DNA of 64,000 nt. Source: Patescibacteria group bacterium (GTDB lineage Bacteria > Patescibacteriota > Microgenomatia > UBA10105 > UBA927). The stretch is taken from positions 64,596-128,595 of the forward strand of contig DATKGN010000013.1 of assembly GCA_035510735.1 (NCBI GenBank), in the 5' to 3' direction. Each line of letters starts with the position of its first letter. Within the stretch, counting starts at the first letter, position 1. Shown here piece after piece: positions 4,184 to 64,000 of the stretch. The notes under the pieces are model-generated. The model was not told the DNA's origin. It saw only the letters and a list, made by a program, of their open reading frames with translations, and did not search any database. The translations under genes and the position numbers were made by a program.

Positions 4184-4286
4184 AAAATAAATTCAATCAA
4201 TATTGCGTACCGGTATTATAACGACTGTTTACCATTATATCCAACGCTTTCAAATTGGTGTGGTCTGTGAAATAATGCGGTAAAAT

Positions 4287-9016: not shown

Positions 9017-9077
9017 ATCTCTAACTTCCTTATCTTCTCTTATGGACTTTACTCAAATCCGTCATATAATCTAACAA
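9017..9077. promoter_or_regulatory. Divergent promoter region between YfhO-2 (minus) and GT39-2 (plus). A TATAAT box lies at 9065..9070, 7 nt upstream of the ATG at 9078, so the transcript is possibly leaderless.
   Basis: This is the only 61-bp non-coding gap between divergent genes here. It contains an exact TATAAT hexamer. No Shine-Dalgarno sequence precedes the ATG. Confidence 0.3.
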
Positions 9078-12686: not shown

Positions 12687-12698
12687 GTGTGCGATTAA

Positions 12699-13619
12699 CT
12701 AGAGAGCTAAATCCTTATCAGAACGCTTCCATTTTGCTTTTAGCGCTTGCCGCTTTTTGAGAGCGGAAGGAAGCATGCCCAGTGCAAGAAAAAATCCCTG
12801 AATATGTATGAAATCGCCACGAAATAACGACTGACACAGTCGAACCGGTGTCCAAAAAACATGATCTATCATTATTGACAGATCGGTCAGATTTTTCCAA
12901 ATAAAAATAAATTGGTTACGGTATGCTATTCGTTTTACATCATCGGGAGTAAATTCACTCTTAATTTTTCCCTCTTCATGATAGTGATTCACAATGCTCT
13001 TCGGTTCAAAGATTATATCCCAACCCATCTTCCGGGCGCGATATGACAAATCAATATCTTCCCAGTAAAAGGGATTAAACAACTTATCCATGCTGTCCAG
13101 CTCACTCCATATGGATCTCCGGAAAGCTGCGCTTCCGCCAGAGGCCCACGCCGTATCACTTCCACCCACATCACCCCGCGAATGAATATAATATCCCTTT
13201 TCCCAATGGGCTAATCCACGACCACGCAGAATAACGCCGCCATTCTCAAAACTCCGTTCCAGACAACCTACGGCAAATACCCTGGAATCAGAAAAATGCT
13301 GAAGAAGCGGCGGCAAAAAATCTTTATCCGGCTCAACATCAGTGTTAAGAAGAATAACGATATCACCTGTTGCTTTTAAAACGCCGGAATTAACGTTCCC
13401 GGCAAAACCTTCGCGTTTTGTATTAGCGACAACGACGACATTCGGGAAACTGTTACGTAAATATTCTACTGACCCATCAGAAGACATATCGTCAGCAACG
13501 ACGATTTCCGCTTTTGGGGCCGCCAAAATAACATTCTTCAGATGCTTTTTCATTAGATAAACACCGTTCCAGTTCGGGATGACGATTGAAACGCTCAGGG
13601 GATGATTATTATTTTTCAT
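12699..13619 (-). CDS. GT2 glycosyltransferase, rhamnosyltransferase (WbbL)-like.
   Basis: 'VSIVIPNWNG...VVADDMSSDGS...LLNTDVEPDKDFL' carries the GT2 DXD and N-terminal signatures. It is a paralog of 19983..20915. Confidence 0.75.
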   Translation of the reverse strand: MKNNNHPLSVSIVIPNWNGVYLMKKHLKNVILAAPKAEIVVADDMSSDGSVEYLRNSFPNVVVVANTKREGFAGNVNSGVLKATGDIVILLNTDVEPDKDFLPPLLQHFSDSRVFAVGCLERSFENGGVILRGRGLAHWEKGYYIHSRGDVGGSDTAWASGGSAAFRRSIWSELDSMDKLFNPFYWEDIDLSYRARKMGWDIIFEPKSIVNHYHEEGKIKSEFTPDDVKRIAYRNQFIFIWKNLTDLSIMIDHVFWTPVRLCQSLFRGDFIHIQGFFLALGMLPSALKKRQALKAKWKRSDKDLAL

Positions 13620-13630
13620 AAACTTTGAAA

Positions 13631-15889
13631 TTAACGGTATATTAGATCAACTGAATGAGACCCTGTTGGCACGAGAACACCCATGAAAACATAATTCGTA
13701 CGGTATATCGCTGTAGCTTTCTTGTCAATGTATGCATGCCAGCCGGAAATATAGGAATTACTCACAACGAGTAACCTCGGTACCATCGTACTCACCTTAA
13801 AAGAAATCTGATCATCAGCATACCGTTTTATCTCAACTGTTTCCGAGGTTGTAAGCGGAACATTGATAGTTTGTACGGGATATTCTACAACTGCGGATAT
13901 ACCTGGTTTGAACGCCGGATTGTAAAGTTTATTCATGATGGCTTGTTTATTTATCAAAAATATCGGCTGCTCTACTAGATACGCCCGCGGGAGGAAATTT
14001 GGGGCCACAAACAACATTGTTTTTCCTTCAGTCAGTACTTTTTGAAATCCCATTCGACTTAAATCATCAAACGAAAGAACATATTGAACGTTGAATAATG
14101 GAAGAAGCGGCGATTGCACATTTTTCGGCACGAGGATGCGGTTAAAACCGAATGGTGGAGAAATATTCGGTGACCCCCGCCCCATAGCGGCAGCAAATTC
14201 CTCATACCGTGATGAATAAAGGGGATCGTATCCGTTAATCGATTCAATTCCGTAAAATTCATTAACGTTCGGCGGTAATATTCTGTCATCCGTCGTCATA
14301 ATACGAAATGGCTTCGGTTGCTTCTGCAGGTATGAAATAATTTTTGTCGTCGGGAAAAAATAGGAAGTGTCTGTAAAGGGCGTAAATTTCCATCCGAATC
14401 TGAATAGGTCGACAACAGTGAACAATATAATACATGAAGTTAACAACGGCAAAAATTTATTATGACGCTTTAACGTAATCAGTAACATAAGGAGCAGGCC
14501 TGATCCGATAAATATAACGGTGGGCACTACGAGGTTACGTTTTATTAAAATAACCTTATCGAGTGGAATACCGAATAATTTCGGGGCAAACGCGCCAAAC
14601 CACAAAACAACCAACAGAAGGAATAGAACCGAAACCCATTGAAATGCTTTTTTATGTTTTATAGTATCCGTTATCGCAGATAATCCGTATGCGGCAAGCA
14701 CCGAGAGACTAAAATCAATGATGACCAATAGTCTTGTCGGCTGTAAAGATGAAATGAGCGGGAGATGAAGCTGAAATGGCAAATAGGCAACCGGTGATGC
14801 TACAGCAAAAAGCAAGCTGATGATGACCATGAATAGCCAAAACATGGTTTGTGACCCTATCCCGATGAGCGCCAATAGTAGCCCCCCAACTCCGACATAT
14901 CCAACCATTTCACCATAATTCCACATTCCCCAATAATTGAGTGTTGCTGGATTTCCAAAATAATCGGGAGCAATAAATTGAACGAGATGCCGGAAGGGAA
15001 TAAAAAATCCTTCGGATTGCCATGCAGAACTTGTGAGTAGTCGACTTGTCTGAGGAAACCATTCAATAATTCTGAACATCTGCGGAGCTATCAGAATGTA
15101 TACGACGCACAAGCCAGTGAGATACATATAGGAATTCCGTAATAGAAATGCGCGTCTGTGGAACCATAAGGTGTATAAAACAATGAAAAGGGTGCTATAG
15201 AGAAAAATCTGACTGTGACCTGCGAAAAACGAGCATGCGATCGATAATCCCGCAATAAAAGCCCAAACCATTCGATTCCTGTTCTTCTCGTCAAAAATGT
15301 TATCGACCGCAAGTAGAGTCAACGGAGTCCACAACCATGAGGAAATCATTGTCCCCCATGTTAACCATGCAATAGAAAATCCGGAAAACGAAAAACAAAT
15401 TGCACCGAACAATGAGGGCAAGTTGCCTAATTTCTTATGACGCAGATATATATACAAAAATATTCCTGACAACAACGGCTGACTTATGATAAGCATCGTC
15501 CAGGCAGCCGCAAACGGAAATAATAAAAATAATATATTTAACGGATAAAGTGCACCGCTTTGTATGTTTGCTAAAAGCGGAGCTCCTGAGAAAGAATACG
15601 GGTCCCACAAGGATATCTTTCCCTGCCGCAGAGAATCGGTGAATGATTTGCGCCAGGGAATTTGCTGGCGGATGGGATCAGTGATAAGAAAATTTTTGAA
15701 GGGTATACCATTTGGATATTGAACCGCATAGGCATCTCTATAGGGTGAATAGAGTCCGACAAGAGCATCGGAAGGAACGGGCAACTTACCAAATACAATC
15801 GTCCGGTAAAAAAATACGCCCACGATAACCGTAAAAAGTAATACAAAAATCCAGTCGCTAAAACGTTTCAAACGTAATAATGATTTCAT
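13631..15889 (-). CDS. YfhO-family membrane protein, paralog 3.
   Basis: It carries 'LWDPYSFSGAPLLANIQSGALYP' and the C-terminal 'YISGWHAYIDKKATAIYRTNYVFMGVLVPTGSHSVDLIY' block. Its start overlaps the stop of the upstream GT4 by 4 nt. Confidence 0.7.
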   Translation of the reverse strand: MKSLLRLKRFSDWIFVLLFTVIVGVFFYRTIVFGKLPVPSDALVGLYSPYRDAYAVQYPNGIPFKNFLITDPIRQQIPWRKSFTDSLRQGKISLWDPYSFSGAPLLANIQSGALYPLNILFLLFPFAAAWTMLIISQPLLSGIFLYIYLRHKKLGNLPSLFGAICFSFSGFSIAWLTWGTMISSWLWTPLTLLAVDNIFDEKNRNRMVWAFIAGLSIACSFFAGHSQIFLYSTLFIVLYTLWFHRRAFLLRNSYMYLTGLCVVYILIAPQMFRIIEWFPQTSRLLTSSAWQSEGFFIPFRHLVQFIAPDYFGNPATLNYWGMWNYGEMVGYVGVGGLLLALIGIGSQTMFWLFMVIISLLFAVASPVAYLPFQLHLPLISSLQPTRLLVIIDFSLSVLAAYGLSAITDTIKHKKAFQWVSVLFLLLVVLWFGAFAPKLFGIPLDKVILIKRNLVVPTVIFIGSGLLLMLLITLKRHNKFLPLLTSCIILFTVVDLFRFGWKFTPFTDTSYFFPTTKIISYLQKQPKPFRIMTTDDRILPPNVNEFYGIESINGYDPLYSSRYEEFAAAMGRGSPNISPPFGFNRILVPKNVQSPLLPLFNVQYVLSFDDLSRMGFQKVLTEGKTMLFVAPNFLPRAYLVEQPIFLINKQAIMNKLYNPAFKPGISAVVEYPVQTINVPLTTSETVEIKRYADDQISFKVSTMVPRLLVVSNSYISGWHAYIDKKATAIYRTNYVFMGVLVPTGSHSVDLIYR

Positions 15890-16950
15890 ATTATTTTATT
15901 TGTACCCGTTATATCTAATAATAATGCATCAAATGACCGGCAAAATCGGTCCTTCGTGAATGCGGTTGAACTTTTGAGAGCAGCCGCTGCCATGGCGCTT
16001 CGTAGCTCCGTATTTTTAATGAGTGTCGTGGTTTCCTGGATCAGCTCCTCCGTTGTATTCCAGAGGAATCCGCTTTTCCGATTCGCAATTATTTCCGGTT
16101 GCCCCCCTCCGTCAAAAACGACCGGTACGGCTCCTGCTGCCATGGCCTCAACTGTCGTTATTCCGAAATGCTCCATATGTTCCGGTTTTGTTTCCCCGTA
16201 GCCTGCTGCATGCCAATAGATAGAAGCGGCGGAATAGTGAGTATTAAGCGTTTCGTACGAACAATTAGGGTAAAATTCGACGGGCAAGCCTTTTGCTTTC
16301 AGTTTCAGGGAATTGAAATAGTCGGTATCACTTGATAATAATCCACCCGCAATGACAAGCTTCCACCCCTTTAAGAGCGGGCTCTTATATAGTTTACGGA
16401 ATGTCTCGATGAGCACATTCTGTTTCTTTGCTCCATAATGCCCGTTAAATCTGCCGACTGACAAAAGTATCTTCGATTTTCTGCCGGGCTTTAGTGCGCT
16501 CACATCAACAGGCGGGTAAATAACCGTTCTGGGGATGACAAGGTGAGGATCAAGGTGCTTTTTCGTAAATTCCGAATTGCATACAATCCGCTGATAACGG
16601 AATGCTTTCCAAAAAGGCATCGAAATATGAGAAAACGGCACCTGAAAATGAAGTATATTGTATTTTGCAGCAGATAATGGAATACTTCCGTCACTCAGGA
16701 AAAAAATAAGATCGTATGAGCTCGTGGTCATTAACTTCCCAATACTATTTCCCAACTGGAACACATTTGCGACAATACTCACTTTTGCTAGGTCAATACT
16801 AAATCTCTTTTGAACCTCAGCTTTCACTTTATTATCATCCCAGAACACGCTAACATTGTGTATTTGGGACCAATGTTCAGCCAGGCTAAACACATAACGC
16901 TCCCCTCCTCCAAGAGAATCTAAATATGGACTATATATACCGATTTTCAT
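15886..16950 (-). CDS. GT4 (GT-B fold) glycosyltransferase.
   Basis: The C-terminal block 'GITTVEAMAAGAVPVVFDGGGQPEII' matches the EX7E-type GT4 motif. The protein is 354 aa. Confidence 0.75.
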   Translation of the reverse strand: MKIGIYSPYLDSLGGGERYVFSLAEHWSQIHNVSVFWDDNKVKAEVQKRFSIDLAKVSIVANVFQLGNSIGKLMTTSSYDLIFFLSDGSIPLSAAKYNILHFQVPFSHISMPFWKAFRYQRIVCNSEFTKKHLDPHLVIPRTVIYPPVDVSALKPGRKSKILLSVGRFNGHYGAKKQNVLIETFRKLYKSPLLKGWKLVIAGGLLSSDTDYFNSLKLKAKGLPVEFYPNCSYETLNTHYSAASIYWHAAGYGETKPEHMEHFGITTVEAMAAGAVPVVFDGGGQPEIIANRKSGFLWNTTEELIQETTTLIKNTELRSAMAAAALKSSTAFTKDRFCRSFDALLLDITGTNKII

Positions 16951-19256
16951 ATTACGGAAGCTAAAAACACTCCAGAAAATATTATTACAAAACCCATTAC
17001 GGCAAACATAAATCCGACACGCAGGCTATCCGGAAAATAAACAAATTGAACGATATGACCACCGGCCGGGATGGCCACCGCACGAAAATCATAGTCTGCG
17101 CGATAGATCTCCGATGGCTTACCATCAACAGTCGCGTGCCATCCCGGATCAAATACATCCGACAAAAAAAGCAATTTTGGAACTACTGAAGAAGTTTTTA
17201 CGGTCACGTTGTTTGGTTTGTAGGACACAATATCCGCTGACCCTGAACCGATTCTCGGCTTAATCGCAGGCTCCTTCTCAAGTATCAATGATTCTCTCCG
17301 ATCAAAAGTGCTATCGAAAAGCGTTTGAATAATTGCGGTGTCACTTTGAATGGTCGTAAAGGACGAAGCAAGAAAGGCCCGTGGGTAAGCCTTTACATAT
17401 TCAAATATCTCATAGCTGTTATCAGAGTAAATTTGTTTCATAGATGAATCAGGTAAATATTCCCAAAATGGAAATGCCCAAATATTTCTCCCGTCGCTAA
17501 TCCTGTGGTAAATATAACGGACGCCTAACAGTTGAAGTATATCTGTTTTATATATTCCCTCTTTATCAAATAACACGACGGAACGGCCTCCGGGGGAAAT
17601 ATACCCGTTTGACGATGCATTAATGAACTGTGCGTAGCGGCCCTGATAGAGAGCGTCATATCCTTCGATAAGCGGCAAATGGAACGTTCCTCCTACTTCA
17701 TTCCCGATGTTACCGAACACCCGGTCATTCCCGATTTTCGATTGAAGAACCATCAATGATTTTTCTTCGGGATAAATATACTGCCTGGGGTCAAACGGCA
17801 TCCACTTCGTTACGAACCGGTACGAATCAAAAAGGATCAATCCCAAAATAAGACCTGTTACGACGACACGCATATATTTTTGCTTTAAAGATCCCGCAAA
17901 CATTAACACAAAAGTTACGATTGCAAACAGCGTTGGCAATACGAAGTTTCTCTTCGCGATTGTTAATTTATCTATGGGTAATGGTTTTCCTAATAACAGA
18001 AATACCCAGAGAAAAATAACAACGAACAGAGCAATAACTATAAATCGAATCGGAGATTTTTTTCCGAACCGCCAATAGTCTACAAGTTCATCAAATCCAT
18101 AAGACGCAAGCACGGTAAGAGAAAAACTAAACAGTACGATAATTCTTGAAGCCGCGCTCGTTGATAGTGCCGGTATTTTCAGCCGGAATAGAAGGTCATT
18201 AACCGGCGTCGGATACGCAAGAAGTAATGCCAAAGCGGCGAGAGTAATAAAAAATTTCTTGTCCGATTTAAAATTCCTCACACTCCCGAAAACCGCTAAA
18301 AGAAAAGGCACAACTCCTATATAGGAAGACCATTCCGCATAATGTCCGAACCAGTCGTTCCGTGTCACCGGATTGCCGAAGAAATCCGGTGCGAATGTGG
18401 TCACGATATATTGCCAGGGAATTACCTCTAATTTTGCATAACTCGCCCCCCGTGTTGACGCCCTATACGCATCAAGTGTTAGCAATAATTGCGGTGCAGC
18501 AATAAATAATCCGCCGATACTATAAAGAAGCAATGCGGCCCCCTGCAACCACTTGCGGGAATCTGCAGCTTTAAAAATGATATATAACACCACCGTCGCC
18601 ATCACATACAGGCTGATCTGAAAATGCCCCGAAACGAACGATAATGCAACGCTTGCTGCGAGAATTAAGCGGGCTATTGATGATTTCCTAATAAAGTCAG
18701 TTGTGACTGCCCATAAAGACCATGGGAGAAATGCTATAGCGTAACCAAGCGTGCCGTATGCCATCCAGGTTGTCATAAAGCCGCAAAACATAAATCCTAT
18801 GGCTCCGATAAGTGCCCCTGTTTTTGACCGGGAGAGTCTTCTTACAAACAAATAGGTTCCAATACCTGCTATGAGAGGTTGCAGAAGAATGAGAACGCTC
18901 CATGCATCAATAAACGGAAGAATCATAAATAGCAGGTTCATCGGGGAAAATACAGCCGATTGATAGTTAGCTGCAAGCGGAGTACCGGAGAAACTATAAG
19001 GATTCCAAAGCGGTATTGCCCCGTTCTTCCAGATATCGATAGTAAGTTTTCTCCAGGGATACATCTGAGATATCACATCCGGCATCGCATTATTTTTGAC
19101 AGGCATACCGTTCATGGCATTCCAAGGAGGAAAAAATGTAACTAAATATTTCGACGGAAACGGGATAAGTCCGCGGACAAAATACGGTGAGGAAAAAACA
19201 AACCAAAGAATGATAATCACGATAATCGGCCAAAATCTCGTAAGGAATTGTCTCAT
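16947..19256 (-). CDS. YfhO-family membrane protein, paralog 4.
   Basis: It carries 'LWNPYSFSGTPLAANYQSAVFSP' and the C-terminal 'FDPGWHATVDGKPSEIYRADYDFRAVAIPAGGHIVQFVYFP' block. The start was moved to the internal ATG (MRQFL...) at 19254-19256, which forms an ATGA overlap with the upstream GT2 stop. The track ORF extends to 19280. Confidence 0.7.
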   Translation of the reverse strand: MRQFLTRFWPIIVIIILWFVFSSPYFVRGLIPFPSKYLVTFFPPWNAMNGMPVKNNAMPDVISQMYPWRKLTIDIWKNGAIPLWNPYSFSGTPLAANYQSAVFSPMNLLFMILPFIDAWSVLILLQPLIAGIGTYLFVRRLSRSKTGALIGAIGFMFCGFMTTWMAYGTLGYAIAFLPWSLWAVTTDFIRKSSIARLILAASVALSFVSGHFQISLYVMATVVLYIIFKAADSRKWLQGAALLLYSIGGLFIAAPQLLLTLDAYRASTRGASYAKLEVIPWQYIVTTFAPDFFGNPVTRNDWFGHYAEWSSYIGVVPFLLAVFGSVRNFKSDKKFFITLAALALLLAYPTPVNDLLFRLKIPALSTSAASRIIVLFSFSLTVLASYGFDELVDYWRFGKKSPIRFIVIALFVVIFLWVFLLLGKPLPIDKLTIAKRNFVLPTLFAIVTFVLMFAGSLKQKYMRVVVTGLILGLILFDSYRFVTKWMPFDPRQYIYPEEKSLMVLQSKIGNDRVFGNIGNEVGGTFHLPLIEGYDALYQGRYAQFINASSNGYISPGGRSVVLFDKEGIYKTDILQLLGVRYIYHRISDGRNIWAFPFWEYLPDSSMKQIYSDNSYEIFEYVKAYPRAFLASSFTTIQSDTAIIQTLFDSTFDRRESLILEKEPAIKPRIGSGSADIVSYKPNNVTVKTSSVVPKLLFLSDVFDPGWHATVDGKPSEIYRADYDFRAVAIPAGGHIVQFVYFPDSLRVGFMFAVMGFVIIFSGVFLASVI

Positions 19257-20017
19257 GATGTCCTTTTCTGCAGTTCCCAAAGCTTCGCGTACGTAATAAA
19301 CATGCTGAATGCCTGATAAATGCTTTCAATTAACCCGACCGTACCCGCTTTCCAGCCCCCCTGGCGGATAAACGAATCAAAAAAAGCGGTCATCATGACG
19401 CGAAGAAGTCTCCACCAGGAAATGAGTGGATGATGACTTTTAAACCGTAACTCTGCTTCTAAAGCAGACCATTTATTAGTTTTATCGACCATTTCCTCAA
19501 GCGTTCGGTGCGTTTTGTGAATAAAGCAATTGCGAAGCGTTGAAATTGGCCCATGAACGACCGCATGCTCATGCAGAACTCCGTCCCACTGCGAGAGGGC
19601 ATCGTTTCGGATCAAGCGAACCATACCATCCCTACTGGGCCACAACAAGCCGAGGTAATAATTCTGTCGGGGAATAAAATAAGCGCGTGAAGCATGCTCA
19701 CCAGTTATTTCGCTCATAATTTCTTCGCGAAGCGGCGGCGGGACCAATTCATCGGCGTCCACGTAAAGAAGCCATATACCATGCGCTGCTTTAGCACCGT
19801 TATTCCGAAGCAGCGAAAAGTTATTACTCCGTACATTTACAACTATAGCGCCGCATTTTTTTGCGATAAGCGCTGTTTCATCCGTTGAAGCGTTATCAAT
19901 AACAATGCACTCATCTGCCCATGAAAGGCTCTGTAAACACCCCTCCAAGCGTTTTGCTTCATTTCTGGCAATAACAATCGCACTAAGAAGTATTCTTCTT
20001 TTCATACTGTTTTCCAA
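19253..20017 (-). CDS. GT2 glycosyltransferase (WaaE/KdtX-like clade).
   Basis: 'LSAIVIARNEAKRLEGCLQSLSWADECIVIDNASTDET' is the signature. It is a paralog of 20912..21823. Confidence 0.7.
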   Translation of the reverse strand: MENSMKRRILLSAIVIARNEAKRLEGCLQSLSWADECIVIDNASTDETALIAKKCGAIVVNVRSNNFSLLRNNGAKAAHGIWLLYVDADELVPPPLREEIMSEITGEHASRAYFIPRQNYYLGLLWPSRDGMVRLIRNDALSQWDGVLHEHAVVHGPISTLRNCFIHKTHRTLEEMVDKTNKWSALEAELRFKSHHPLISWWRLLRVMMTAFFDSFIRQGGWKAGTVGLIESIYQAFSMFITYAKLWELQKRTS

Positions 20018-23272: not shown

Positions 23273-24002
23273 ATATCATTCTCTTCCATGGTCTGATAAC
23301 CAATAATCGCCATAAACCCTCCAAATCCCCCTGAGCCGTTTTTACAACCCGCACGGTTGAACCCGGGTTGTCGATCCACGTCACTCCCTCTTCATAAATG
23401 CGAAATCCCAGCTTTTCAGAAAGAATCAATAATTCAGTATCAAAAAACCATGCATTATCCTCGGTATACGGTAAAATCTTTTTTGCACAACGGTCAGTAA
23501 TCGCCTTAAAACCGCACTGGGCATCGCTAAATTTGACCCAAAAAAACAGTTTAATAAGAGAAATATACACTTTTGAGGTCAGTGTCCGTAGCCAATTTCT
23601 ACCGTACACGCGGGAGGCTCTCGCGTTCCTTGTCCCGATAGCAAGATCATATCCACGAAGCAGTGAACGAACAAGAGGCGGAAAGTGCTTGAGATCTGTT
23701 GAGAGATCAACATCCATATAACAATGGATATCGGCATCGGTGTGAAGCCAGGCGTATTTTACTGCACGTCCCCTGCCTTTTTGTTTCAGATGGACTGCGT
23801 GCACTTGCCGGAATCGTTTTGATAGTATTTTAGCAATAGCAAGCGTTTGATCCGTCGACGCGTTATCTGCGATGGTAATACTCCATTCAAAATCCATTAA
23901 ATATGATTGCAGATAGCGGATAAGCGTCTCCACGTGATCCGCTAATTCAACTTCTTCATTAAAAACAGGTATGACGATATCAAGTTTTGGTTTTTTTCCC
24001 AT
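23253..24002 (-). CDS. GT2 polyprenol-phosphate sugar synthase-like (Dpm1/GtrB-like), short form.
   Basis: 'LDIVIPVFNEEVEL...ITIADNASTDQTLAIAK...QKGRGRAVKYAW' is the signature. It is 249 aa with no C-terminal TM. Confidence 0.6.
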   Translation of the reverse strand: MGKKPKLDIVIPVFNEEVELADHVETLIRYLQSYLMDFEWSITIADNASTDQTLAIAKILSKRFRQVHAVHLKQKGRGRAVKYAWLHTDADIHCYMDVDLSTDLKHFPPLVRSLLRGYDLAIGTRNARASRVYGRNWLRTLTSKVYISLIKLFFWVKFSDAQCGFKAITDRCAKKILPYTEDNAWFFDTELLILSEKLGFRIYEEGVTWIDNPGSTVRVVKTAQGDLEGLWRLLVIRPWKRMIYDYGRN

Positions 24003-25656
24003 ATGTGAGAACTCCTCCGACTAAAACGAATGAAATAACACTCAACACATTTCCGACAATGCGGATGGGAGTATTGGTAAGACTCGCTTCAAATGTCGAT
24101 TTACCCTTCGATAGTACCATGCGGGGCTCGCCCTGAACAATGGTAGGACGAACGAGGAGACCGTTTATTTTATAAATCCATCCGGGGAATACGGCCTTCT
24201 GAAAAACTGTCTGTTGGTCAATGTTACTTTCAAGAATAGCTTTATAGTTGGTATCGGAATCGGTAATTTCGGTAACTCTAAGATTTTCATTGCCTATAAT
24301 TGGCGCTGTTATAATCTCTGATGCACTTATCGGTTTTTTAATTCCCGGCGGCAAATATTCATCAGATATCTTGGAAATTCGAAAACGAAGTTCGTCCGTT
24401 GTCTCAAACGCTTTTGAATCCTGCGCATACAGGTATTGCGGCGCGAATAATTTTGCATTCATAAATAGACAAATACCGACCACCACGATCGCAAGTAATA
24501 TCTGATGCGTACGTTGCTGTATCGTTGAAATGAAAAAACTTGCTGATATGCCCATGGCGAGCATTACAAAGGCTAATAGACGCCACGGGTATTGAATAAA
24601 CGACACAAAAGGCACTATCAACCATAATGATTTCGAAACATCAATCATTCCTACAACAGATAATACGAAAAGAATTACTCCAATCGTTGCCATCGCCGTA
24701 ATGGTCGACTTCTTTTTATTCTTTAGTGAAACTACCCACATCAAAGCGGCTATCATCGTCACTATTAACTGGAGTTTACCGAGCTTAAATGACATGCCGT
24801 CGACGCACCCGGGCGCTGAACCCGCATAACCCCACGGGGAATCCCATAACTGCAACGGACATACAAAATGATCGAAAAAATTCGTTGGCGCGCGCGAAAT
24901 CATAGATGACACGGATGTCGATCCCATTTCAACAAAAGCGGGAAGCCAAAAAAATGCGCTAAGCCCGAAGCCTAGTAAAACCGACATGAATAAATGCATC
25001 ATTAACTGCGCATCAAAAGACTTTCGGATGAATGCGTAGAGTGAATATAAAAGAATGCCTCCGATAACTAATCCTGAAGTTAAAAATCCCAAAATTGTGT
25101 GTGAGACAATGACACACGCAAACCCGATGCCACCTACAACAATCCCTATAGATGTTTTTTTCTTTACGATAAGGGAAAATCCCCAGAGTATGAGTGGAGC
25201 AAATGCTATTGCCCAATATTCCCCAACAGCCCCTCTGATATACACCTGAACGGCATGATAGGGTGCGTAAGAGAAAAGCAACGTGCCGACGATAGCGCTG
25301 ATTGTACCGAAAATATAATCAGCAAAAAAATAAAAAAATACAACGGCGAGGAGGATGCCTGCGGCAAACATAGTTTTTGTCGCTACAATGCTGTCTACCC
25401 CAAACGCATGGAGTGTACCTCCGAAATAGTAAGGGAGCGGGGCATAAAAGTTGTATAAGGGATATCCGTAACCGTATCCGAGGTCTGAAACCCATCGCAC
25501 AGGAAATTGTCCCTCACGAAGCGCCCTTCCCATTACAACAACGCGCGCAACCTGTGTATCATCATGCATGGGAAAATATCCTGGTCCGACCAGTGGTTTA
25601 ATGAGAAACCAAGACAAAAGCAACACAACGATGAATCCTATCAATGTAAATTTCAT
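23980..25656 (-). CDS. Polytopic membrane protein, GT-C-like, with a conserved 'FPMHDDTQVARV...LREGQFPVRWVSDLGYGYGYP' N-terminal loop. Possibly PF10131 PTPS-related-type; family assignment is low confidence. Paralog 1.
   Basis: 558 aa and multi-TM. The N-terminal loop motif is shared with the adjacent paralog. Confidence 0.55.
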   Translation of the reverse strand: MKFTLIGFIVVLLLSWFLIKPLVGPGYFPMHDDTQVARVVVMGRALREGQFPVRWVSDLGYGYGYPLYNFYAPLPYYFGGTLHAFGVDSIVATKTMFAAGILLAVVFFYFFADYIFGTISAIVGTLLFSYAPYHAVQVYIRGAVGEYWAIAFAPLILWGFSLIVKKKTSIGIVVGGIGFACVIVSHTILGFLTSGLVIGGILLYSLYAFIRKSFDAQLMMHLFMSVLLGFGLSAFFWLPAFVEMGSTSVSSMISRAPTNFFDHFVCPLQLWDSPWGYAGSAPGCVDGMSFKLGKLQLIVTMIAALMWVVSLKNKKKSTITAMATIGVILFVLSVVGMIDVSKSLWLIVPFVSFIQYPWRLLAFVMLAMGISASFFISTIQQRTHQILLAIVVVGICLFMNAKLFAPQYLYAQDSKAFETTDELRFRISKISDEYLPPGIKKPISASEIITAPIIGNENLRVTEITDSDTNYKAILESNIDQQTVFQKAVFPGWIYKINGLLVRPTIVQGEPRMVLSKGKSTFEASLTNTPIRIVGNVLSVISFVLVGGVLTYGKKTKT

Positions 25657-27224
25657 GAACTCTTTTTTGTCTTCTTAACGGTCTTTTGAGCAATCTTTTT
25701 CTTACGTTTCAAATATAAAATCGACACAATAACAAAAATGATACTGATAACAAGCGAACACATATCTGCAATAAATCTCGATATTGTTTCCCGAAAACTT
25801 GCGATAACATGATGAACGCCTGCCGGAATAGTTACACGGATAAGGCCTAAGTCATTTTTATAATCAATTGTTGCTAATTCTCCGTCAACACTGACTCCCC
25901 ACCCGGGGTAATACATCGTGTTTATCTGAAGAATGCTCTCATCCTTCGCATCAACGACAACATCGATATTTTCCGTCGTCACCTGGTTCTCCCGAATGTT
26001 GCCTGACCCCTTCAATATCTCTAATCTGGTTTCTGCGCGATTTATCGGCGATACGGTTACCCATTTGGGCATATACTCGTCGTGAACGGTCGTTGTGGCT
26101 TCATTCGTCGAATAATACGTATCGGGATGATATTCGTAGCTAATTCCCCTGTAGATACTGTTCAGATGCAGTGTCCATAGAAGAATAAGGGCAATACTGG
26201 CAGGAAGTAAAAATTTTTTCAAAGAATCAAGATACAATGCAGTTAACCACGCCATTGTGAACAGAGAAAGTGACAATAACCTGAACGGAAATTGAAATAA
26301 TACACCAAGAAGCTTAGTATGCCACAGAAATGAGGTCAACGAGGTGGCCATAACCATAGAGAAAATACCTATCAACAGCATATACGTAAGCAATTGATGT
26401 TTCGTACGGCGGATCAACAAAATGGCGGAAACAATAATACCGCTTATTCCGAGAAGCCAAATATTGGTATTTTTAATAAAGTAATCAAACGGATTTGATA
26501 TAATCGACCGTTCAAATACAATATATTTTTGTTCGTACAATGCGGGCATCCAGAAAAAAGAAGCCATTCCGATACCGAACACCAACCAAATGAAGTACTC
26601 TCGCGCCACTTTACGGACCAACAAATACCCGCAGTAAAACCCTATACACAGGACTGCAAGCGAATTATGGGCAAGAATAAGAAGCCCGACAGAAAGAGAA
26701 AACAGCCAAGGCTGACCCAATTCAATGCTATATAGCCCCATCCCAGCCACACTGAAGGCAAGTAATTCTCCGACAGATCCCCGAGAGTAAAGGTCAAATA
26801 ACAAATACGGCCCTGTCATGAAAGAAAGGGCTCCGAAAAGACTCGACGTCGTTTTAAAAAACTTCCGTAACCACAGGTAGATCCAAATGCCGCCGGATAC
26901 TAGAGACACGCCAAGGATTATTTTCACCGTCGTTACGAACGAAAAGCCGGCAATATGTATGAGGGAACCAATATAAAGAAATCCGGGGTATAGAAAATTA
27001 GCGACGGGATATCCGTAACTATGATTCAGTCTTCCTAAAAAACGAACGGGAAACTGCCCCTCACGGAAGCTTTGATAGAACGCGCTTAACCTAATGATCA
27101 TCCAACTGCCGTCATCGGTCACTATGAATCCGCGATGAAATAACGGCAGAAGAAGCATGAGCCCTACAAATATGATCACAACAAATGGAAAGAGCTTTTT
27201 GAAAGTAAGGCTCATAAATAACAA
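25653..27224 (-). CDS. Polytopic membrane protein, the same family as 23980..25656. Paralog 2, a tandem duplicate.
   Basis: The N-terminal loop reads 'FIVTDDGSWMIIRLSAFYQSFREGQFPVRFLGRLNHSYGYP'. A 4-nt overlap links it to paralog 1. Confidence 0.55.
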   Translation of the reverse strand: MLFMSLTFKKLFPFVVIIFVGLMLLLPLFHRGFIVTDDGSWMIIRLSAFYQSFREGQFPVRFLGRLNHSYGYPVANFLYPGFLYIGSLIHIAGFSFVTTVKIILGVSLVSGGIWIYLWLRKFFKTTSSLFGALSFMTGPYLLFDLYSRGSVGELLAFSVAGMGLYSIELGQPWLFSLSVGLLILAHNSLAVLCIGFYCGYLLVRKVAREYFIWLVFGIGMASFFWMPALYEQKYIVFERSIISNPFDYFIKNTNIWLLGISGIIVSAILLIRRTKHQLLTYMLLIGIFSMVMATSLTSFLWHTKLLGVLFQFPFRLLSLSLFTMAWLTALYLDSLKKFLLPASIALILLWTLHLNSIYRGISYEYHPDTYYSTNEATTTVHDEYMPKWVTVSPINRAETRLEILKGSGNIRENQVTTENIDVVVDAKDESILQINTMYYPGWGVSVDGELATIDYKNDLGLIRVTIPAGVHHVIASFRETISRFIADMCSLVISIIFVIVSILYLKRKKKIAQKTVKKTKKSS

Positions 27225-30703: not shown

Positions 30704-32311
30704 CTACGTTCCTTTGTAATGAACTAGTTTATAAATTTTTACGAACGGCACGTCCCAAGAACCCACAATATCTGCCCTGCCAAATCCGGCAACTTCCCAC
30801 AGAGAGTTCCCGAGCGGTTTACAGTTCATGGTTTCACAAATCACTATCAACTGATTGGTGACCGTCTTTCGGTCCGGATCAGCACCCGCGGGCTCTATAG
30901 TAACCGGTGCTCTTCCCCAAATTTCAAAGAAGTACCGGTACGCATGATCAGAATTTCCTTCGGTGATGAGTGCAAAATTAAACGGCTTACCGTCTGTTCT
31001 TTCAAGCGCTACGCGTGCGATTGTCTGAATCTGCGATAATTGGTTGTTCGGGGGAAAAACGAAAGGGCGTCCCTGCCAATTAAAGAACAGGAGCGCCCCC
31101 CATAGAATAACGGTCATTACTTTGCCGACGGAACCGATCCAAAGTCTTGACAATGTAAACCCCAAAAAAAGAAAAGGCAGCCAGAATACGATCCCGAAGT
31201 AATAATCGTAAATCGCTTTCCGATAGAGTCCGAAAAGTAGAATGACGGTAAAAAACCAAACTAAGAGAAGAAATATCGCCTCAATAGAATAACCGGAATG
31301 ACCCGTCACCCGATCAATAGTTGAAACCCAACTCTTCGCTATTTTGGTCCTGACTTTTTTAAAAGATAATCCCGTAATAAGAATAAAAAGGAGAACGGGG
31401 ACATATATCGTCGCTTTTGTCAGTATAACGAGAACAAGAACATACCAATGCGGATAATTGTTCCACAGCGGCTCCTCAGGAATTCGATAGAGTAACCGGG
31501 CAAAAATTCGGAAAATAACGTCGCTGATCGTAGGGAAATATTGGGCCCAAGAAAATCCGGTGTCTTTACCCGCAAGTAAAAACTGAATAATAGATTTCGT
31601 ATTCGGAAATCCGTGCCGTACCTCAAAAGCTAAAAAGGGCAAAAAACCTATGATGAATCCGACGATTGTTTTAATAACGGTCCGGAAAAAATGAATTCGC
31701 CGAATCTGCAGGAGATACCAAACACCAACAACAACGAACAGAAACAAAAACAGGTAATGCAACTGGATCCCGATCCCTAGGGCGATACCGATAATGATCG
31801 CATCATATTTACCTGGTTTAACCACGAGCTTCCACAGGTAGTAAAGTAAACATAGTGAAAAAAACGGAACAATATTCGGATTCCAGGATGATCGGGAGTA
31901 CGCAATAACGAGCGGGGATGCAGCATAGATACTCGCGGCAATGAGGCCTGCTAATTTGTTAAAAAAATCGGTGCCGGTTTTATACACGAGGTAAATCGTC
32001 GCAATACCGAATAATGCAACCATGACAGCGGGTCCTACCGGGTCAAGTTTAAAGGCCCAAAGAAAAGGCAGCATAAAATAGTAATAAATGGGCCCGAGGA
32101 AAAATCCTCCGACGGAAGCCGTTGGGCCCAAAAGAGTGAATTTATGATTCACAATCATGTGCATGACGATAAGAACATCCCTGCCTTCATCTCCTAAAAA
32201 GGTCATGTAATTCCTAATCATATAGAGCCGTAAATACGCCCCGAGAAGAAGAATGAAGATAAGTACGATCTGTGACCAATATTTTAATATGAAGGGTTTT
32301 ACTGGTTTCAT
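30704..32311 (-). CDS. Polytopic membrane protein with the 'MTFLGDEGRDV' loop. Paralog of 1028..2506 and a likely GT-C glycosyltransferase.
   Basis: The start was trimmed to the internal ATG (MKPVKPFILKYW...) at 32309-32311. The track ORF to 32449 would overlap the upstream gene by 118 nt. Confidence 0.55.
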   Translation of the reverse strand: MKPVKPFILKYWSQIVLIFILLLGAYLRLYMIRNYMTFLGDEGRDVLIVMHMIVNHKFTLLGPTASVGGFFLGPIYYYFMLPFLWAFKLDPVGPAVMVALFGIATIYLVYKTGTDFFNKLAGLIAASIYAASPLVIAYSRSSWNPNIVPFFSLCLLYYLWKLVVKPGKYDAIIIGIALGIGIQLHYLFLFLFVVVGVWYLLQIRRIHFFRTVIKTIVGFIIGFLPFLAFEVRHGFPNTKSIIQFLLAGKDTGFSWAQYFPTISDVIFRIFARLLYRIPEEPLWNNYPHWYVLVLVILTKATIYVPVLLFILITGLSFKKVRTKIAKSWVSTIDRVTGHSGYSIEAIFLLLVWFFTVILLFGLYRKAIYDYYFGIVFWLPFLFLGFTLSRLWIGSVGKVMTVILWGALLFFNWQGRPFVFPPNNQLSQIQTIARVALERTDGKPFNFALITEGNSDHAYRYFFEIWGRAPVTIEPAGADPDRKTVTNQLIVICETMNCKPLGNSLWEVAGFGRADIVGSWDVPFVKIYKLVHYKGT

Positions 32312-32330
32312 AGTACAAGGTGACTTCAAC

Positions 32331-33449
32331 TTATTTTTTCCAAATGACTTTTGAATACATGAAATAATTCCAAACAAGGAGAAGCGCCGTTCCACCAAGG
32401 AAGTAAATAAAATAGTGCCGATCACCATATAATCGGACGCCAAGTTCAATTATTCCAGTTTGAATAACAATAACGCCGAATGCGGATGTGGCGTAAAACT
32501 GCAGGAGTTTCAGAAGGTACTGGCGGAAACCGGAAATTTTTTTGTGACCGAATGTCCATAAATTATTTAAATTATAGTTTGAAAAAATCGCAACACCGGC
32601 TCCGATAAGGTTAGCAACTGATGCTGTGAAATGAACCCAATTATGAAAAATCATCAGGAGCACAGCGTTAATTGCGAACCCAATTCCTCCGACAATAAGA
32701 AACTTAGAAAAAGATCCGGAAAATAATTCCTGCATTCGGGATTCAAAAATATACAGAAAAATATTTTTGATATATTCTGCCGGAGCGATTTTTGAGTGAC
32801 CGTAAAGTCGGTCGGTAAAATGAAAAGGAACTTCTAAAATCTTGGCACCGTGATGGATTGCCTTATGTAAAAACGCTATTTGAAAAACGTAACCGCTGTA
32901 TTTCGACAGCTCGGAATGTATCTCGACATAAAACTTTTTCGTATACGCGCGAAATCCACCGGTCCAATCATTAACGTGAATATGGCCTAAGCCGAACCGC
33001 ACAATTGAGTTTCCTAAGACGCTGTATATTTTTCGATGCATTCCCCAGTTTTCCGGAATCGAGCCGCCTTTAATGTATCTGCTTCCGACAACAAAATCAT
33101 ATCCGCGATCAAGAGCACGCAAAAATTCTGGTGCAACCTTGGGGTCATGCGACAAATCCGCATCTATCTGTAACACCGCATCAGCATCCATGTGGTCAAA
33201 GGCATAGGTCATGCCGCGGAGTATAGCTTTCCCTAATCCTTCTTTTTTACCCGTTATTATTTCAACGTTTTTATGCGTTTTTTTATATGCAACAACAGCA
33301 TCCCGCGTTCCGTCCGGAGACGTATCATCAACAACAAGATAAGATATGGCATGGTTTTTCACCACGCTAAATGCTTGGGTTAGTTGGCTAAGGAGCGAAG
33401 CGATATTTTCTCGCTCGTTATACGTGGGAACGACAACGACAACCTTCAT
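32331..33449 (-). CDS. Fusion protein: an N-terminal GT2 polyprenol-phosphate glycosyltransferase (Dpm1/GtrB-like) joined to a C-terminal GtrA-family flippase-like 4-TM domain.
   Basis: The N-terminal part reads 'MKVVVVVPTYNERENI...YLVVDDTSPDGT...GKKEGLGKAILRG...QIDADLSHDP'. The C-terminal part reads 'FLIVGGIGFAINAVLLMIF...ANLIGAGVAIFSNYNLNNLWTF', the GtrA/PF04138 pattern. The start was set at the ATG 33447-33449; the track uses TTG at 33476. Confidence 0.65.
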   Translation of the reverse strand: MKVVVVVPTYNERENIASLLSQLTQAFSVVKNHAISYLVVDDTSPDGTRDAVVAYKKTHKNVEIITGKKEGLGKAILRGMTYAFDHMDADAVLQIDADLSHDPKVAPEFLRALDRGYDFVVGSRYIKGGSIPENWGMHRKIYSVLGNSIVRFGLGHIHVNDWTGGFRAYTKKFYVEIHSELSKYSGYVFQIAFLHKAIHHGAKILEVPFHFTDRLYGHSKIAPAEYIKNIFLYIFESRMQELFSGSFSKFLIVGGIGFAINAVLLMIFHNWVHFTASVANLIGAGVAIFSNYNLNNLWTFGHKKISGFRQYLLKLLQFYATSAFGVIVIQTGIIELGVRLYGDRHYFIYFLGGTALLLVWNYFMYSKVIWKK

Positions 33450-61748: not shown

Positions 61749-62312
61749 CTAAAGCCCCAACTCTTCGTGGTGCTCCTGCATTGTTTTCAACGTGATCTCA
61801 ATAAATTCGTTCAAAGAAATACCTAATTTTTCTTCACACAGCGCAATTTGGGAACGATCCACAGGCTTGGCAAATTCCTTAGTTTTCCATTTCTTCATGA
61901 TTGAATGGAGGGACACGGTGTCAAGTTGTTTATCCGGACGCACCAAAGCCACTGCTACGATAAATCCCGTCAGTTCATCACAGGTTTCGAGCGACCATTC
62001 CATAAGTCCGGTAAGTTCAGCAAGATGTGTGCGTTTCGTGTTATGTGACATGAGCGCATGAACAATAGTGCCATCAGTTATTCCTCTATCTTTGAGCCAC
62101 GCAAGCGTATGTTTTGTGTGCTCATCCGGGGTATCTTTTGTTTCCTCCCAATCCGCATCATGCAAAAGCCCTAATGTTTCCCAAACGTCGGGGTCGCCGT
62201 TTAATTTCCCCGCCAATGCGCGCATGGTGTATCCAACCGCGTACATGTGCCTGCGGAGATTCTGATTTTTCGTGTGTTCGTGAAGTAAATCAAGCGCTTG
62301 TTGTCTATTCAT
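61749..62312 (-). CDS. HD-domain phosphohydrolase (HDIG-type).
   Basis: 'HMYAVGYTMRALAGKL...LLHDADWEE' is the HD motif. The protein is 187 aa. Confidence 0.65.
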   Translation of the reverse strand: MNRQQALDLLHEHTKNQNLRRHMYAVGYTMRALAGKLNGDPDVWETLGLLHDADWEETKDTPDEHTKHTLAWLKDRGITDGTIVHALMSHNTKRTHLAELTGLMEWSLETCDELTGFIVAVALVRPDKQLDTVSLHSIMKKWKTKEFAKPVDRSQIALCEEKLGISLNEFIEITLKTMQEHHEELGL

Positions 62313-64000
62313 TTCACCACTCCCTGGAATTCAATAGTCCCGCCGCAATATTTTAAGATTAGCTGAGTGGACTCCCGAAGCGACTGTTCAACCTGTTCCG
62401 GGGTTATATCGAAAACGCCGTCAACGTTTATCCATAAATTTTTGGTATTTTCTGTCACCATCGTCCGTTGTGCATCACGAAAATTGAAATCTATATTATA
62501 CCCGCCATCTTTATCGTAATAAGCCAACTCTTTTTCTGTGTAGAGGGTCGGTTCTTTATCCCCCAAAAGGAGTATTTTATCTCCCGCACCTGCATATCGA
62601 AGTGCTGTCGGAAACTTTACATTATCCGAATCAAATGCGCCGACGGATATCCGGTGCTTCATCACAACAAGATTATACGAATCCACACAAGTATTTACGG
62701 TATAAAGACCCTTTCCGAGCGCCACGCGACGAAGCAATGCTTCAGGGCTCGGGCGCCGCGAATGCCAATCAACTCCCATTTCCTTATACAATTTGCGGTA
62801 ATTGATAACCTCCGGATACGTTCCCAGCGTTTCCGTCGTTAACCCGGCAAGACTAGCCAAAAATGCGTTTTTCTCTTTTTCTAGAGCTGGATTCGATTTT
62901 GTCACATGGACACCCTTAATGAGAGCAACCCCTATGGAAACCGATGGGTATTTTTCCCTAAGAGACTTATCAATTTCAAAATATTCCGACTTCTGAACGA
63001 ACTGAATTGTTGTCTTCTTTGCCGCTTCAGGTTTGCCCTTGTTTAAATTCAGACGCGCTATAACAATATCTTTCGGAAATTTCTTAAGAAGCCAACCGGC
63101 CCGTGGCCCGTGCTTTTTATCTAACACCGCGATATAAAGAGCCTCAAAGGCTGTTTTTGAGTCAATATTTTTTTTCTTAGCAAGCTGAAAAATCTCTGAT
63201 TGAAGCTTTTCCGGGTCTTCAGCACTTTCCCAAACTACGGCTAAATCATTTAGAAAGCTCCACTGAATATCCGAAAGATCAGTCTCACTCAATGGCGTTA
63301 TGGATATCTGAAATCGGTATTCATCTGGGGCGTAATTGCTTAACCATATAGCCGTATCAGTTAATCTATCACCTGCTATTTTTTCTTCACCTTCTGTTAA
63401 CTCCGAGCCTTTCAGTTGAGCCAATCGCTCGAATAAATCTACATTAGGAAGTTGTCTTAAATTCGCTATGTCTCTGAATCTTGGAATATACATTCCTTTT
63501 ACTTTTTTTGGTATATCATTAATCTGAGACAAGACAAATGCTCGCGTAAGATTCTCATCACCATCATTGTTGTATGCCTGCCAACAACGGTCATATTCAT
63601 CGAATAAATCAGGAATCGCCATGGTCCCAACCGGGTCAAATTCAATCGCCTGCCGGTAATCGGTGCGTGTAAATAGAAACCGTCCGACTGAAGCCGGCAA
63701 AACACCGGTCAAATCCCGTCCTTTGAGTCCTAATCCTTTGGAGGATGACATTTTCTTACCGCCGATCAGAAAAAATTCATACGGCAGATTATACGGGTTA
63801 TCGATATGAAACACTTCTTTGCACAATTCTTTGGCGATATCACGCGATCCGCCCGCCGAAGAGTGGTCTTTCCCCGCTCCTTCAATCGTTACCCCAAGCA
63901 CTTTCCAATGCGCGGGCCAGTCCACTTTCCAGGGTAATTTACCGGGATGATGTGCCGAGTTCTTCGGATCGGTAAACGGACTTGTTTTCCCTGTGAATCC
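62309..64000 (-). CDS. lysS: Class I lysyl-tRNA synthetase with a C-terminal PheT-type B3/4 domain fusion. It is 5-prime partial: the N-terminus lies beyond the window.
   Basis: The frame stays open from 63925 to the window edge (...HHPGKLPWKVDWPAHWKVLGVTIEGAGKDH). The KMSKS variant 'KMSSSKG' is characteristic of LysRS-I. The C-terminal ~230 aa carry the B3/4 signature 'NTCVDSYNLVVMKHRISVGAFDSDNV', cf. PheT 'NxVDxTNYVxLExGQPLHAFD'. The track's M at 63925 is really a GTG (Val) codon. Confidence 0.55.
   Translation of the reverse strand, partial: GFTGKTSPFTDPKNSAHHPGKLPWKVDWPAHWKVLGVTIEGAGKDHSSAGGSRDIAKELCKEVFHIDNPYNLPYEFFLIGGKKMSSSKGLGLKGRDLTGVLPASVGRFLFTRTDYRQAIEFDPVGTMAIPDLFDEYDRCWQAYNNDGDENLTRAFVLSQINDIPKKVKGMYIPRFRDIANLRQLPNVDLFERLAQLKGSELTEGEEKIAGDRLTDTAIWLSNYAPDEYRFQISITPLSETDLSDIQWSFLNDLAVVWESAEDPEKLQSEIFQLAKKKNIDSKTAFEALYIAVLDKKHGPRAGWLLKKFPKDIVIARLNLNKGKPEAAKKTTIQFVQKSEYFEIDKSLREKYPSVSIGVALIKGVHVTKSNPALEKEKNAFLASLAGLTTETLGTYPEVINYRKLYKEMGVDWHSRRPSPEALLRRVALGKGLYTVNTCVDSYNLVVMKHRISVGAFDSDNVKFPTALRYAGAGDKILLLGDKEPTLYTEKELAYYDKDGGYNIDFNFRDAQRTMVTENTKNLWINVDGVFDITPEQVEQSLRESTQLILKYCGGTIEFQGVVK

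Follow-up and report, generated by a model that had tools for sequence, protein, structure and literature searches.

At one end of the 64-kb window, by which we mean the whole stretch of 64,000 nucleotides analyzed here (Patescibacteria group bacterium, contig DATKGN010000013.1, positions 64,596 to 128,595), a minus-strand open reading frame (ORF) joins a class I lysyl-tRNA synthetase (LysRS) to a C-terminal module of the B3/4 type, and a small gene for a predicted HD phosphohydrolase follows directly. The lysS::B3/4 frame occupies 62309-64000, with 563 codons and a TGA stop (62311-62309), and, as the first-pass annotation of this sequence had reported, it is still open at the window edge. What lies in the window is the C-terminal 563 residues of a 769-residue protein, the first 206 residues being encoded beyond the edge. 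The upstream part was reached by way of the HD-gene protein, which is 100% identical to a public protein (P0271) and led to an independent assembly (L084, Logan SRR8676595). This sequence has 0 mismatches to the last 5,900 bases of the window and adds 1,363 bases, completing the gene (746-3055 on L084) to an ATG start, with greA upstream. Two more runs (L085 and L087) carry the same 769-aa gene, so that three independent sequencing runs give one ORF, with no stop or frameshift between the synthetase core and the B3/4 module. An assembly or gene-calling artefact was considered and rejected, given that the ORF is identical across independent assemblies and that the architecture occurs in at least 70 genomes. 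In one related locus (L079, 3990-4060) lysS and B3/4 are split into two ORFs; we reject this as a natural split, the junction being a run of 10 N that marks an assembly gap.

The first part of the frame had been read as a class I LysRS core, and profile searches agree. Fragment residues 19-158 match PF01921 (tRNA-synt_1f), and TIGR00467, the NCBIfam lysS_arch equivalog, scores 186.4 bits on the fragment, above its cut-off of 147.55, and 328.1 bits on the full protein, where it covers residues 1-524 (profile 1-512 of 515). Since this match spans residues 1-524 and includes both H33-I-G-S36 and KMSSS (289-293), the synthetase is complete. The HIGH-type and KMSKS-type motifs are nearly invariant in our alignment of 36 homologues (A1), and every string quoted in the earlier annotation, KMSSS, VDWPAHWKVLGVTIEGAGKDH and NTCVDSYNLVVMKHRISVGAFDSDNV, was found in the sequence. 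Of the synthetase, the window itself encodes the helical anticodon-binding domain and, ahead of it, only the second half of the Rossmann catalytic domain. Because TIGR00467 ends at 524, 245 residues are left over, in agreement with the first count of about 230 extra residues; of these, roughly 21 form a linker and 224 the module. The linker has no majority residue in the A1 consensus and falls at low predicted local distance difference test (pLDDT) values at model residues 1-6; similarity between class I-fused and class II-fused proteins (compared with L015 and L020, described below) begins just past it.

That the leftover region is a B3/4 domain in the same ORF was borne out by PF03483, which scores 79.1 bits against a gathering threshold of 29.3 (E 3.9e-22; fragment residues 401-553, profile 2-174 of 174). 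Its proposed derivation from PheT, the beta subunit of phenylalanyl-tRNA synthetase (PheRS), did not survive and is rejected here. The pheT model TIGR00472 reaches 12 bits against a cut-off of 402.65, and Pfam finds no other PheT domain in the protein. In a phmmer search of the PDB the best matches are instead two structures of CtdA (9mkl, E 0.003; 9f7e, E 0.0085), with PheRS beta at E 0.24-0.34. CtdA was found in 2023 as a stand-alone enzyme hydrolysing canavanyl-tRNA-Arg (PMC10018355), and its structures and mutagenesis followed in 2025 (PMC12449066, PMC12268091). The fold tells the same story: an AlphaFold model of the module built from 36 homologues has a mean pLDDT of 89.8, and its top Foldseek matches are CtdA 9f7e and 9mkl (for 9f7e_A, template modeling [TM] scores TMq 0.76 and TMt 0.79 over 231 columns, E 3e-14). 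The core is also common to PheRS beta, where the match is poorer than that to CtdA (TMq 0.51-0.57, about 0.55, with a root-mean-square deviation of 6-8 Å). Moreover, an exhaustive HMMER search of 1.8 billion representatives yielded many free-standing proteins of 225-240 aa that align end to end with the module (query residues approximately 20-240), among them a 229-aa copy (P0128) that is 58% identical and has the same pocket signature. Because CtdA is the best match in both the PDB and Foldseek searches, because the free-standing proteins align along their whole length, and because TIGR00472 fails, the appended unit is a whole free-standing protein of the CtdA deacylase family rather than a PheT domain.

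Forty-eight positions of the module are invariant over the 36 homologues of A1, and the module is under strong purifying selection. All pocket residues given here were assigned by the phmmer alignment to 9f7e, in which the CtdA numbering agrees with the published one. CtdA Y104-N105, required for activity in the mutagenesis data (PMC12268091, PMC12449066) and proposed as the ester/oxyanion site, corresponds to Y648-N649, a position at which bacterial PheRS beta has T-N; the conserved G116 corresponds to G660, and G117 to A661. The Tyr648 equivalent is present in 72 of 73 class I loci and that of Asn649 in all 73, and both are present in 8 of 8 class II loci. R714 and R718 are common to the module and CtdA, as are E171, D176, N186, R188 and R192 (243-residue numbering), and counterparts of CtdA E155, N170, R172 and R176 and of its S/C-x-EAL-x-RR motif are kept. 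The side-chain pocket, in contrast, differs: CtdA E118, C166, W169, Q173, I189 and E191 are F662, N708, F711, D715, N731 and D733 here, an exchange that takes in all the canavanine-pocket residues (E118, C166, Q/E173, I189 and E191). The resulting signature, F-N-F-D-N-D, is essentially invariant over 81 Microgenomatia loci (73 class I and 8 class II), with only conservative changes, F/Y at 711 and D/E at 733. Two acidic residues would lie at the bottom of the predicted pocket, which would therefore suit a cationic side chain.

Distribution of the module and exchange of its partners

The fusion had first been described as an unusual domain recombination; as a one-off event it is not tenable, and homologous fusions in related genomes, which it had suggested looking for, are plentiful. 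The best 120 database matches all carry PF01921 and PF03483, mostly as full-length proteins of about 767 aa, and are 55-85% identical to the window protein; those with names are entered as "lysine--tRNA ligase," the organism being Candidatus Gottesmanbacteria or Patescibacteria. Scanning the species genomes of GTDB gave 80 loci, in records labeled as Gottesman-, Levy-, Woese-, Davies-, Roizman- and Pacebacteria and CPR3 (Microgenomatia), and six-frame analysis places the module and class I LysRS (LysRS-I) in one ORF in about 72 of the 80. As an architecture, the LysRS-B3/4 fusion is conserved, with at least 70 species-level Microgenomatia genomes having it. Mean identity to the window protein is 63.4% for the module and 48.7% for the adjacent LysRS half, and the module is the more conserved of the two in 72 of 75 loci; it is under stronger constraint than the neighboring synthetase half. 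Divergent LysRS-I–B3/4 proteins (P0170 and P0198, with cluster members P0391, P0396 and P0397) belong to Anaerolineae and Aggregatilineales (Chloroflexota), and the architecture therefore extends outside the candidate phyla radiation (CPR) bacteria. The modules of this divergent type are 28-35% identical (28-33% for the proteins just named), with the pocket Y-C-L-D-I/L-D. A cluster look-up also returned a distant fusion in one "Promethearchaeota" metagenome-assembled genome.

Many GTDB titles would suggest a still wider spread: L004, L006, L009, L010, L032, L070, L073 and others are titled "uncultured Gammaproteobacteria," "Sulfotelmatobacter," "Bathyarchaeia" or "Vitreimonas." On loci of Patescibacteria type, such titles look like placeholder or mis-binned labels and are unfit as evidence of wider distribution. 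One of these loci (L004, CAYLQG010000014.1) is the closest relative, with a module that is 91% identical and the order greA–lysS::B3/4–ham1–serS.

Alone among the synthetases, LysRS comes in both structural classes, and the module is found on both. Of the 80 loci, 8 have a class II LysRS (tRNA-synt_2 with an OB anticodon domain) as the ORF ahead of the module, as confirmed by Pfam for five and by reading the sequences for all eight (L015:401-2587, L020:2495-4708, L034:2558-4729, L067:2423-4678, L040, L054, L064 and L078). The class II-fused modules are 54-70% identical to the window module and have the same pocket signature. For five of the eight the neighborhood, too, is that of the window locus, with greA upstream and HD, ham1 or serS genes downstream; L034 and L040 retain ham1 only, and L078 has none of these genes. 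Against the window genome, L015 (class II body) shows 73% identity for HD, 67% for Ham1 and 72% for seryl-tRNA synthetase (SerRS), and L001, a class I locus, 74%, 62% and 72%. Hence L015 is as near to the window genome as L001 is, despite its class II body. The class II bodies fall into at least four groups, 37-49% identical among groups, and the module of each group resembles class I-fused modules no less than it does other class II-fused ones. Read together, these comparisons indicate that the synthetase body has been swapped in situ more than once or twice, each time with the module retained and the linker as the point of breakage; the tree was built by neighbor joining with no bootstrap, which makes the number of exchanges approximate. 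The conserved unit is therefore "LysRS activity plus module." Since the module persists through class I/class II exchange, its function would be tied to lysylation of tRNA-Lys and not to either enzyme architecture.

Fusions beyond this locus show how the pocket varies with the partner. Seven metagenomic proteins (P0190, P0194, P0197, P0212, P0222, P0237 and P0265) are arginyl-tRNA synthetases (ArgRS) with an N-terminal CtdA-type module, and an eighth ArgRS (P0256) has two such modules in tandem. The ArgRS-fused modules keep CtdA's own pocket, E-C-W-E-V-E, as expected for cis editing of canavanyl-tRNA-Arg, and they are probably cis-editing ArgRS enzymes. Among the class II LysRS (LysRS-II) fusions, P0134 is LysRS-II–B3/4–HD, P0145 (1072 aa) is LysRS-II–tRNA_bind–B3/4–HD, P0135 (906 aa) is LysRS-II–B3/4–DUF2000 (a family that we take to have a PTH2-like fold), and P0185 carries the module N-terminal to LysRS-II. 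A further protein, P0242 (576 aa), combines B3/4 with ankyrin repeats. As far as alignment can tell, pocket type follows the fusion partner except in P0185 and P0226.

These observations bear on what the module does. The reading we favor is that it edits mischarged tRNA-Lys, and two other proposals can be weighed against it here. One is that the module is a non-catalytic appendage for binding or capturing tRNA, which would make tRNA-Lys bind more tightly or hold the enzyme on other translation components. Class I LysRS needs tRNA even for amino-acid activation (PMC7373986), B3/4-like domains do occur in non-editing contexts (one Foldseek match is LRRC47 on the 40S subunit), and the additional tRNA_bind domain of P0145 implies selection for tRNA-binding add-ons. 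We nevertheless judge a pure capture role to be unlikely, as the invariant residues go beyond surface basic residues to line the catalytic and aminoacyl pocket of CtdA, the module is better conserved than the LysRS half beside it, and a generic tRNA binder leaves the partner-dependent signatures unexplained.

The other proposal is a tethered trans-editing factor, with a substrate that does not come from LysRS at all (canavanyl- or analogue-tRNA-Arg, for example, or a broader mischarged set) and a fusion that serves only co-expression or localization. CtdA itself works in trans on canavanyl-tRNA-Arg (PMC10018355, PMC12449066), the LysRS-II fusions P0185 and P0226 carry a pocket of the CtdA/ArgRS type, and the free-standing P0128 has the Microgenomatia signature. 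Against this, all the positions whose role in specificity was tested in CtdA have another residue in the Microgenomatia pocket (E118→F, C166→N, Q173→D, I189→N and E191→D), and the module keeps to LysRS of either class through the body swaps and has not moved to other genes; we regard this proposal as improbable.

The HD gene and the rest of the window

The gene directly downstream of lysS::B3/4 starts within it, in a 4-nucleotide ATGA overlap that also occurs in L001, L002 and L084 and implies translational coupling (Table 1). Its product aligns over its full length with the C-terminal HD domains of P0134 (residues 786-973) and P0145 (residues 895-1072) at 36-37% identity (E 4e-27 and 9e-30), and in L050 (2465-5419) an HD domain is fused behind LysRS-I–B3/4 in a single frame of 986 codons. 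The stop-codon overlap here and the fusions in L050, P0134 and P0145 link this HD family functionally to LysRS–B3/4, to which the co-transcribed HD hydrolase probably serves as an accessory. The metal ligands H22, H51-D52, H65, H90 and D112 are invariant in 20 homologues. Among the 70 loci that keep at least one neighboring gene, 32 have the HD gene within 4 kb downstream; the closest relative, L004, has none at the locus, so the HD protein is dispensable or encoded elsewhere in that genome.

Table 1. Features of the lysS::B3/4 locus, with positions in the window
Feature	Position	Strand	Basis or remark
Class I LysRS body, partial (residues 207-524 of 769)	63047..64000	minus	PF01921 E 2.2e-36, weak PF19269, TIGR00467
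KMSSS, class I "KMSKS" loop (residues 289-293)	63740..63754	minus	Read from sequence
HIGH-type motif H33-I-G-S36	On L084, outside window		Read from sequence
Linker, about 21 residues, Lys/Ala/Thr-rich, ending LNKGKPEAAKKTTIQFVQKSE	62984..63046	minus	Variable in sequence and length between homologues
CtdA-type B3/B4 module, 224 residues (546-769)	62312..62983	minus	Pfam, AlphaFold model, Foldseek
VDSYN motif with Tyr648-Asn649	62672..62686	minus	phmmer alignment to 9f7e and 9mkl
SVGAFD with Gly660, Ala661 and Phe662	62630..62647	minus	Alignment to CtdA
Rest of predicted side-chain pocket, DFNFRDAQR … WINVDG	62417..62491	minus	N708 just upstream, in GGYNID
ATGA overlap: lysS TGA 62311-62309, HD-gene ATG 62312-62310	62309..62312	minus	Read from sequence
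HD/HDIG phosphohydrolase gene, 187 aa	61749..62312	minus	Pfam HD E 9e-6

The HD protein resembles YqeK, PgpH and the HD domain of the bacterial glycyl-tRNA synthetase (GlyRS) beta subunit, in each case weakly. A single-sequence search of the PDB gave no match, and the family profile matched the YqeK hydrolase of diadenosine tetraphosphate (Ap4A) 8jja weakly (E 9e-5), over 37 aligned residues (17-53) at the YqeK N-terminus. In Foldseek the model had no match at E≤0.001 and only generic HD domains at a TM of about 0.5, with that of GlyRS beta ranked first and YqeK entries at TM 0.4-0.5. We have not adopted the name Ap4A hydrolase, for which both the sequence and the fold matches are too weak. 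They could be taken to mean that B3/4 and HD together form a unit for nucleotide or tRNA-end processing, in which an Ap4A by-product is removed or 3′ ends are repaired, with no proofreading involved. Ap4A is a classical product of LysRS, the HD gene is coupled to lysS in translation here and fused to it elsewhere, and the profile and Foldseek matches to YqeK and GlyRS beta lean the same way. Even so, we consider such a unit very improbable: the HD matches are weak (37 aligned residues; TM of about 0.5), the HD gene is absent from about half of the loci, L004 included, while B3/4 is always present, and the B3/4 fold has no known link to nucleotide hydrolysis.

No other LysRS, class II included, and no second B3/4 domain is encoded within the 64-kb window, and ARAGORN finds no tRNA gene there, hence no tRNA-Lys adjoining the locus. 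Elsewhere, positions 2507-19280 and 30704-32449 hold a dense set of paralogous membrane glycosyltransferase-like genes, with four ORFs of the YfhO family and three of the PMT/PMT_2 family (548-802 aa), and several long ORFs that Pfam does not match are interspersed with these genes or close by (10725-12686 and 23980-27224). The run looks like a cell-envelope glycosylation island.

Proposed function and comparison with known systems

We propose, with moderate confidence, that the module acts in cis as a post-transfer editing domain, clearing tRNA-Lys that has been charged with a lysine look-alike, and editing is the best-supported of the functions considered for it. In the scheme we envisage, a complete and presumably active class I LysRS carries a deacylase on a flexible linker of about 20 residues. 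After the synthetase has esterified tRNA-Lys, the CCA-3′ end would swing into the B3/B4 pocket, where Tyr648-Asn649 and Gly660 would position the ester and the attacking water. The lineage-specific pocket (F662, N708, F711, D715, N731 and D733) would admit a cationic compound resembling lysine but keep lysine itself out, and the mischarged tRNA would then be hydrolysed. From what is generally known of LysRS misactivation, and so from outside our own evidence, candidate non-cognates would be ornithine, arginine or homoarginine, thialysine, and aminooxy compounds resembling canaline or canavanine.

Seven lines of evidence argue for editing. The first is the architecture, with a full TIGR00467 match and a B3/4 domain in one ORF that is identical in independent assemblies. 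The nearest solved relatives, 9f7e and 9mkl, are proven trans-editing enzymes (PMC10018355, PMC12449066), and the Y104/N105 pair that CtdA requires is retained, as is the conserved G116. The pocket signatures are partner-specific, E-C-W-E-V-E with ArgRS and F-N-F-D-N-D with the LysRS of Microgenomatia; the module persists on class I and class II LysRS alike; it is more conserved than the LysRS half; and further hydrolase domains (HD and DUF2000) are fused to such proteins.

Other considerations pull the opposite way. To our knowledge, a domain for post-transfer editing in cis has not been described for any LysRS, and class I LysRS has been reported to be intrinsically selective, which makes the need for editing questionable. 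Support for the proposal is computational throughout, with the pocket taken from an alignment to CtdA. CtdA acts in trans, and so a fused copy need not serve the tRNA of its own synthetase. The pairing of pocket with partner is imperfect, given that the LysRS-II fusions P0185 and P0226 have the CtdA/ArgRS-type pocket, E/D-C-W-E-V-E. Finally, a 2020 review lists only pre-transfer editing for LysRS, and this in class II enzymes (PMC7373986).

A bolder version of the proposal, which we put forward tentatively and as somewhat less than an even bet, is that this is the first dedicated post-transfer editing domain of any LysRS: a CtdA-family deacylase re-tuned to a natural lysine antimetabolite that, with the HD protein, would make up a tRNA-Lys quality-control cassette, important enough for Microgenomatia to retain it through at least three or four exchanges between the unrelated class I and class II bodies. 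In the accepted view LysRS lacks a post-transfer editing domain (PMC7373986), and the present results suggest that this synthetase, long held to lack an editing module, can have one. We found no description of LysRS-B3/4 or ArgRS-CtdA fusions in the literature, in an incomplete search for which "B3/4" was not a literally searchable term. The CtdA papers (PMC10018355, PMC12268091, PMC12449066) mention neither a fusion nor LysRS, and in the AARS Online paper, the passages on LysRS and on fused domains and the table of shared domains give no B3/4 or CtdA-type domain on LysRS. The fusion proteins themselves are already public, with both Pfam domains precomputed, and are annotated merely as lysine--tRNA ligase.

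If the proposal is correct, LysRS would join the editing synthetases, with one deacylase module serving both classes at the same locus, and the CtdA family would gain a second specificity besides canavanine. The body exchanges would then amount to a natural experiment in which the module, rather than the catalytic fold, is the conserved unit, with a bearing on how the domains of synthetases are selected. The module would also be a pointer to amino-acid antimetabolite stress in the host-dependent, ultra-small bacteria of the CPR.

Among known systems, CtdA is the closest, sharing the full-length fold, including the CtdA-type helical insert, and giving the best PDB sequence match. The window module is only 18-19% identical to it, however, and the setting differs: CtdA is free-standing and belongs to the ArgRS/tRNA-Arg system, whereas the window module is a predicted deacylase covalently fused to LysRS, with its specificity residues changed (E118→F, C166→N, W169→F, Q173→D, I189→N, E191→D). 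The B3/B4 domain of PheRS beta shares PF03483 and the core motif N-x-VD-x-x-N…AFD, and it is a cis post-transfer editing domain within a synthetase, the very role proposed here; it differs in its PheT-specific helices and B1/B2/B5-B8 context, neither of which the window module has, and in T-N in place of Y-N. For one deacylase fold distributed between free-standing proteins and different synthetases, the precedent is the AlaX/AlaRS/ThrRS family (PMC11580382). The CtdA-type fold is likewise found free-standing and on ArgRS, LysRS-I and LysRS-II; the two folds are unrelated, and the AlaX case is long established. The last comparison is with class II LysRS, whose pre-transfer editing, the cyclisation of homocysteine, homoserine and ornithine, also guards fidelity against lysine-like or small amino acids (PMC7373986). 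That reaction precedes transfer, uses the synthetic active site and calls for no additional domain, whereas the window protein is a class I enzyme with a separate, predicted hydrolytic module, an arrangement that implies editing after transfer.

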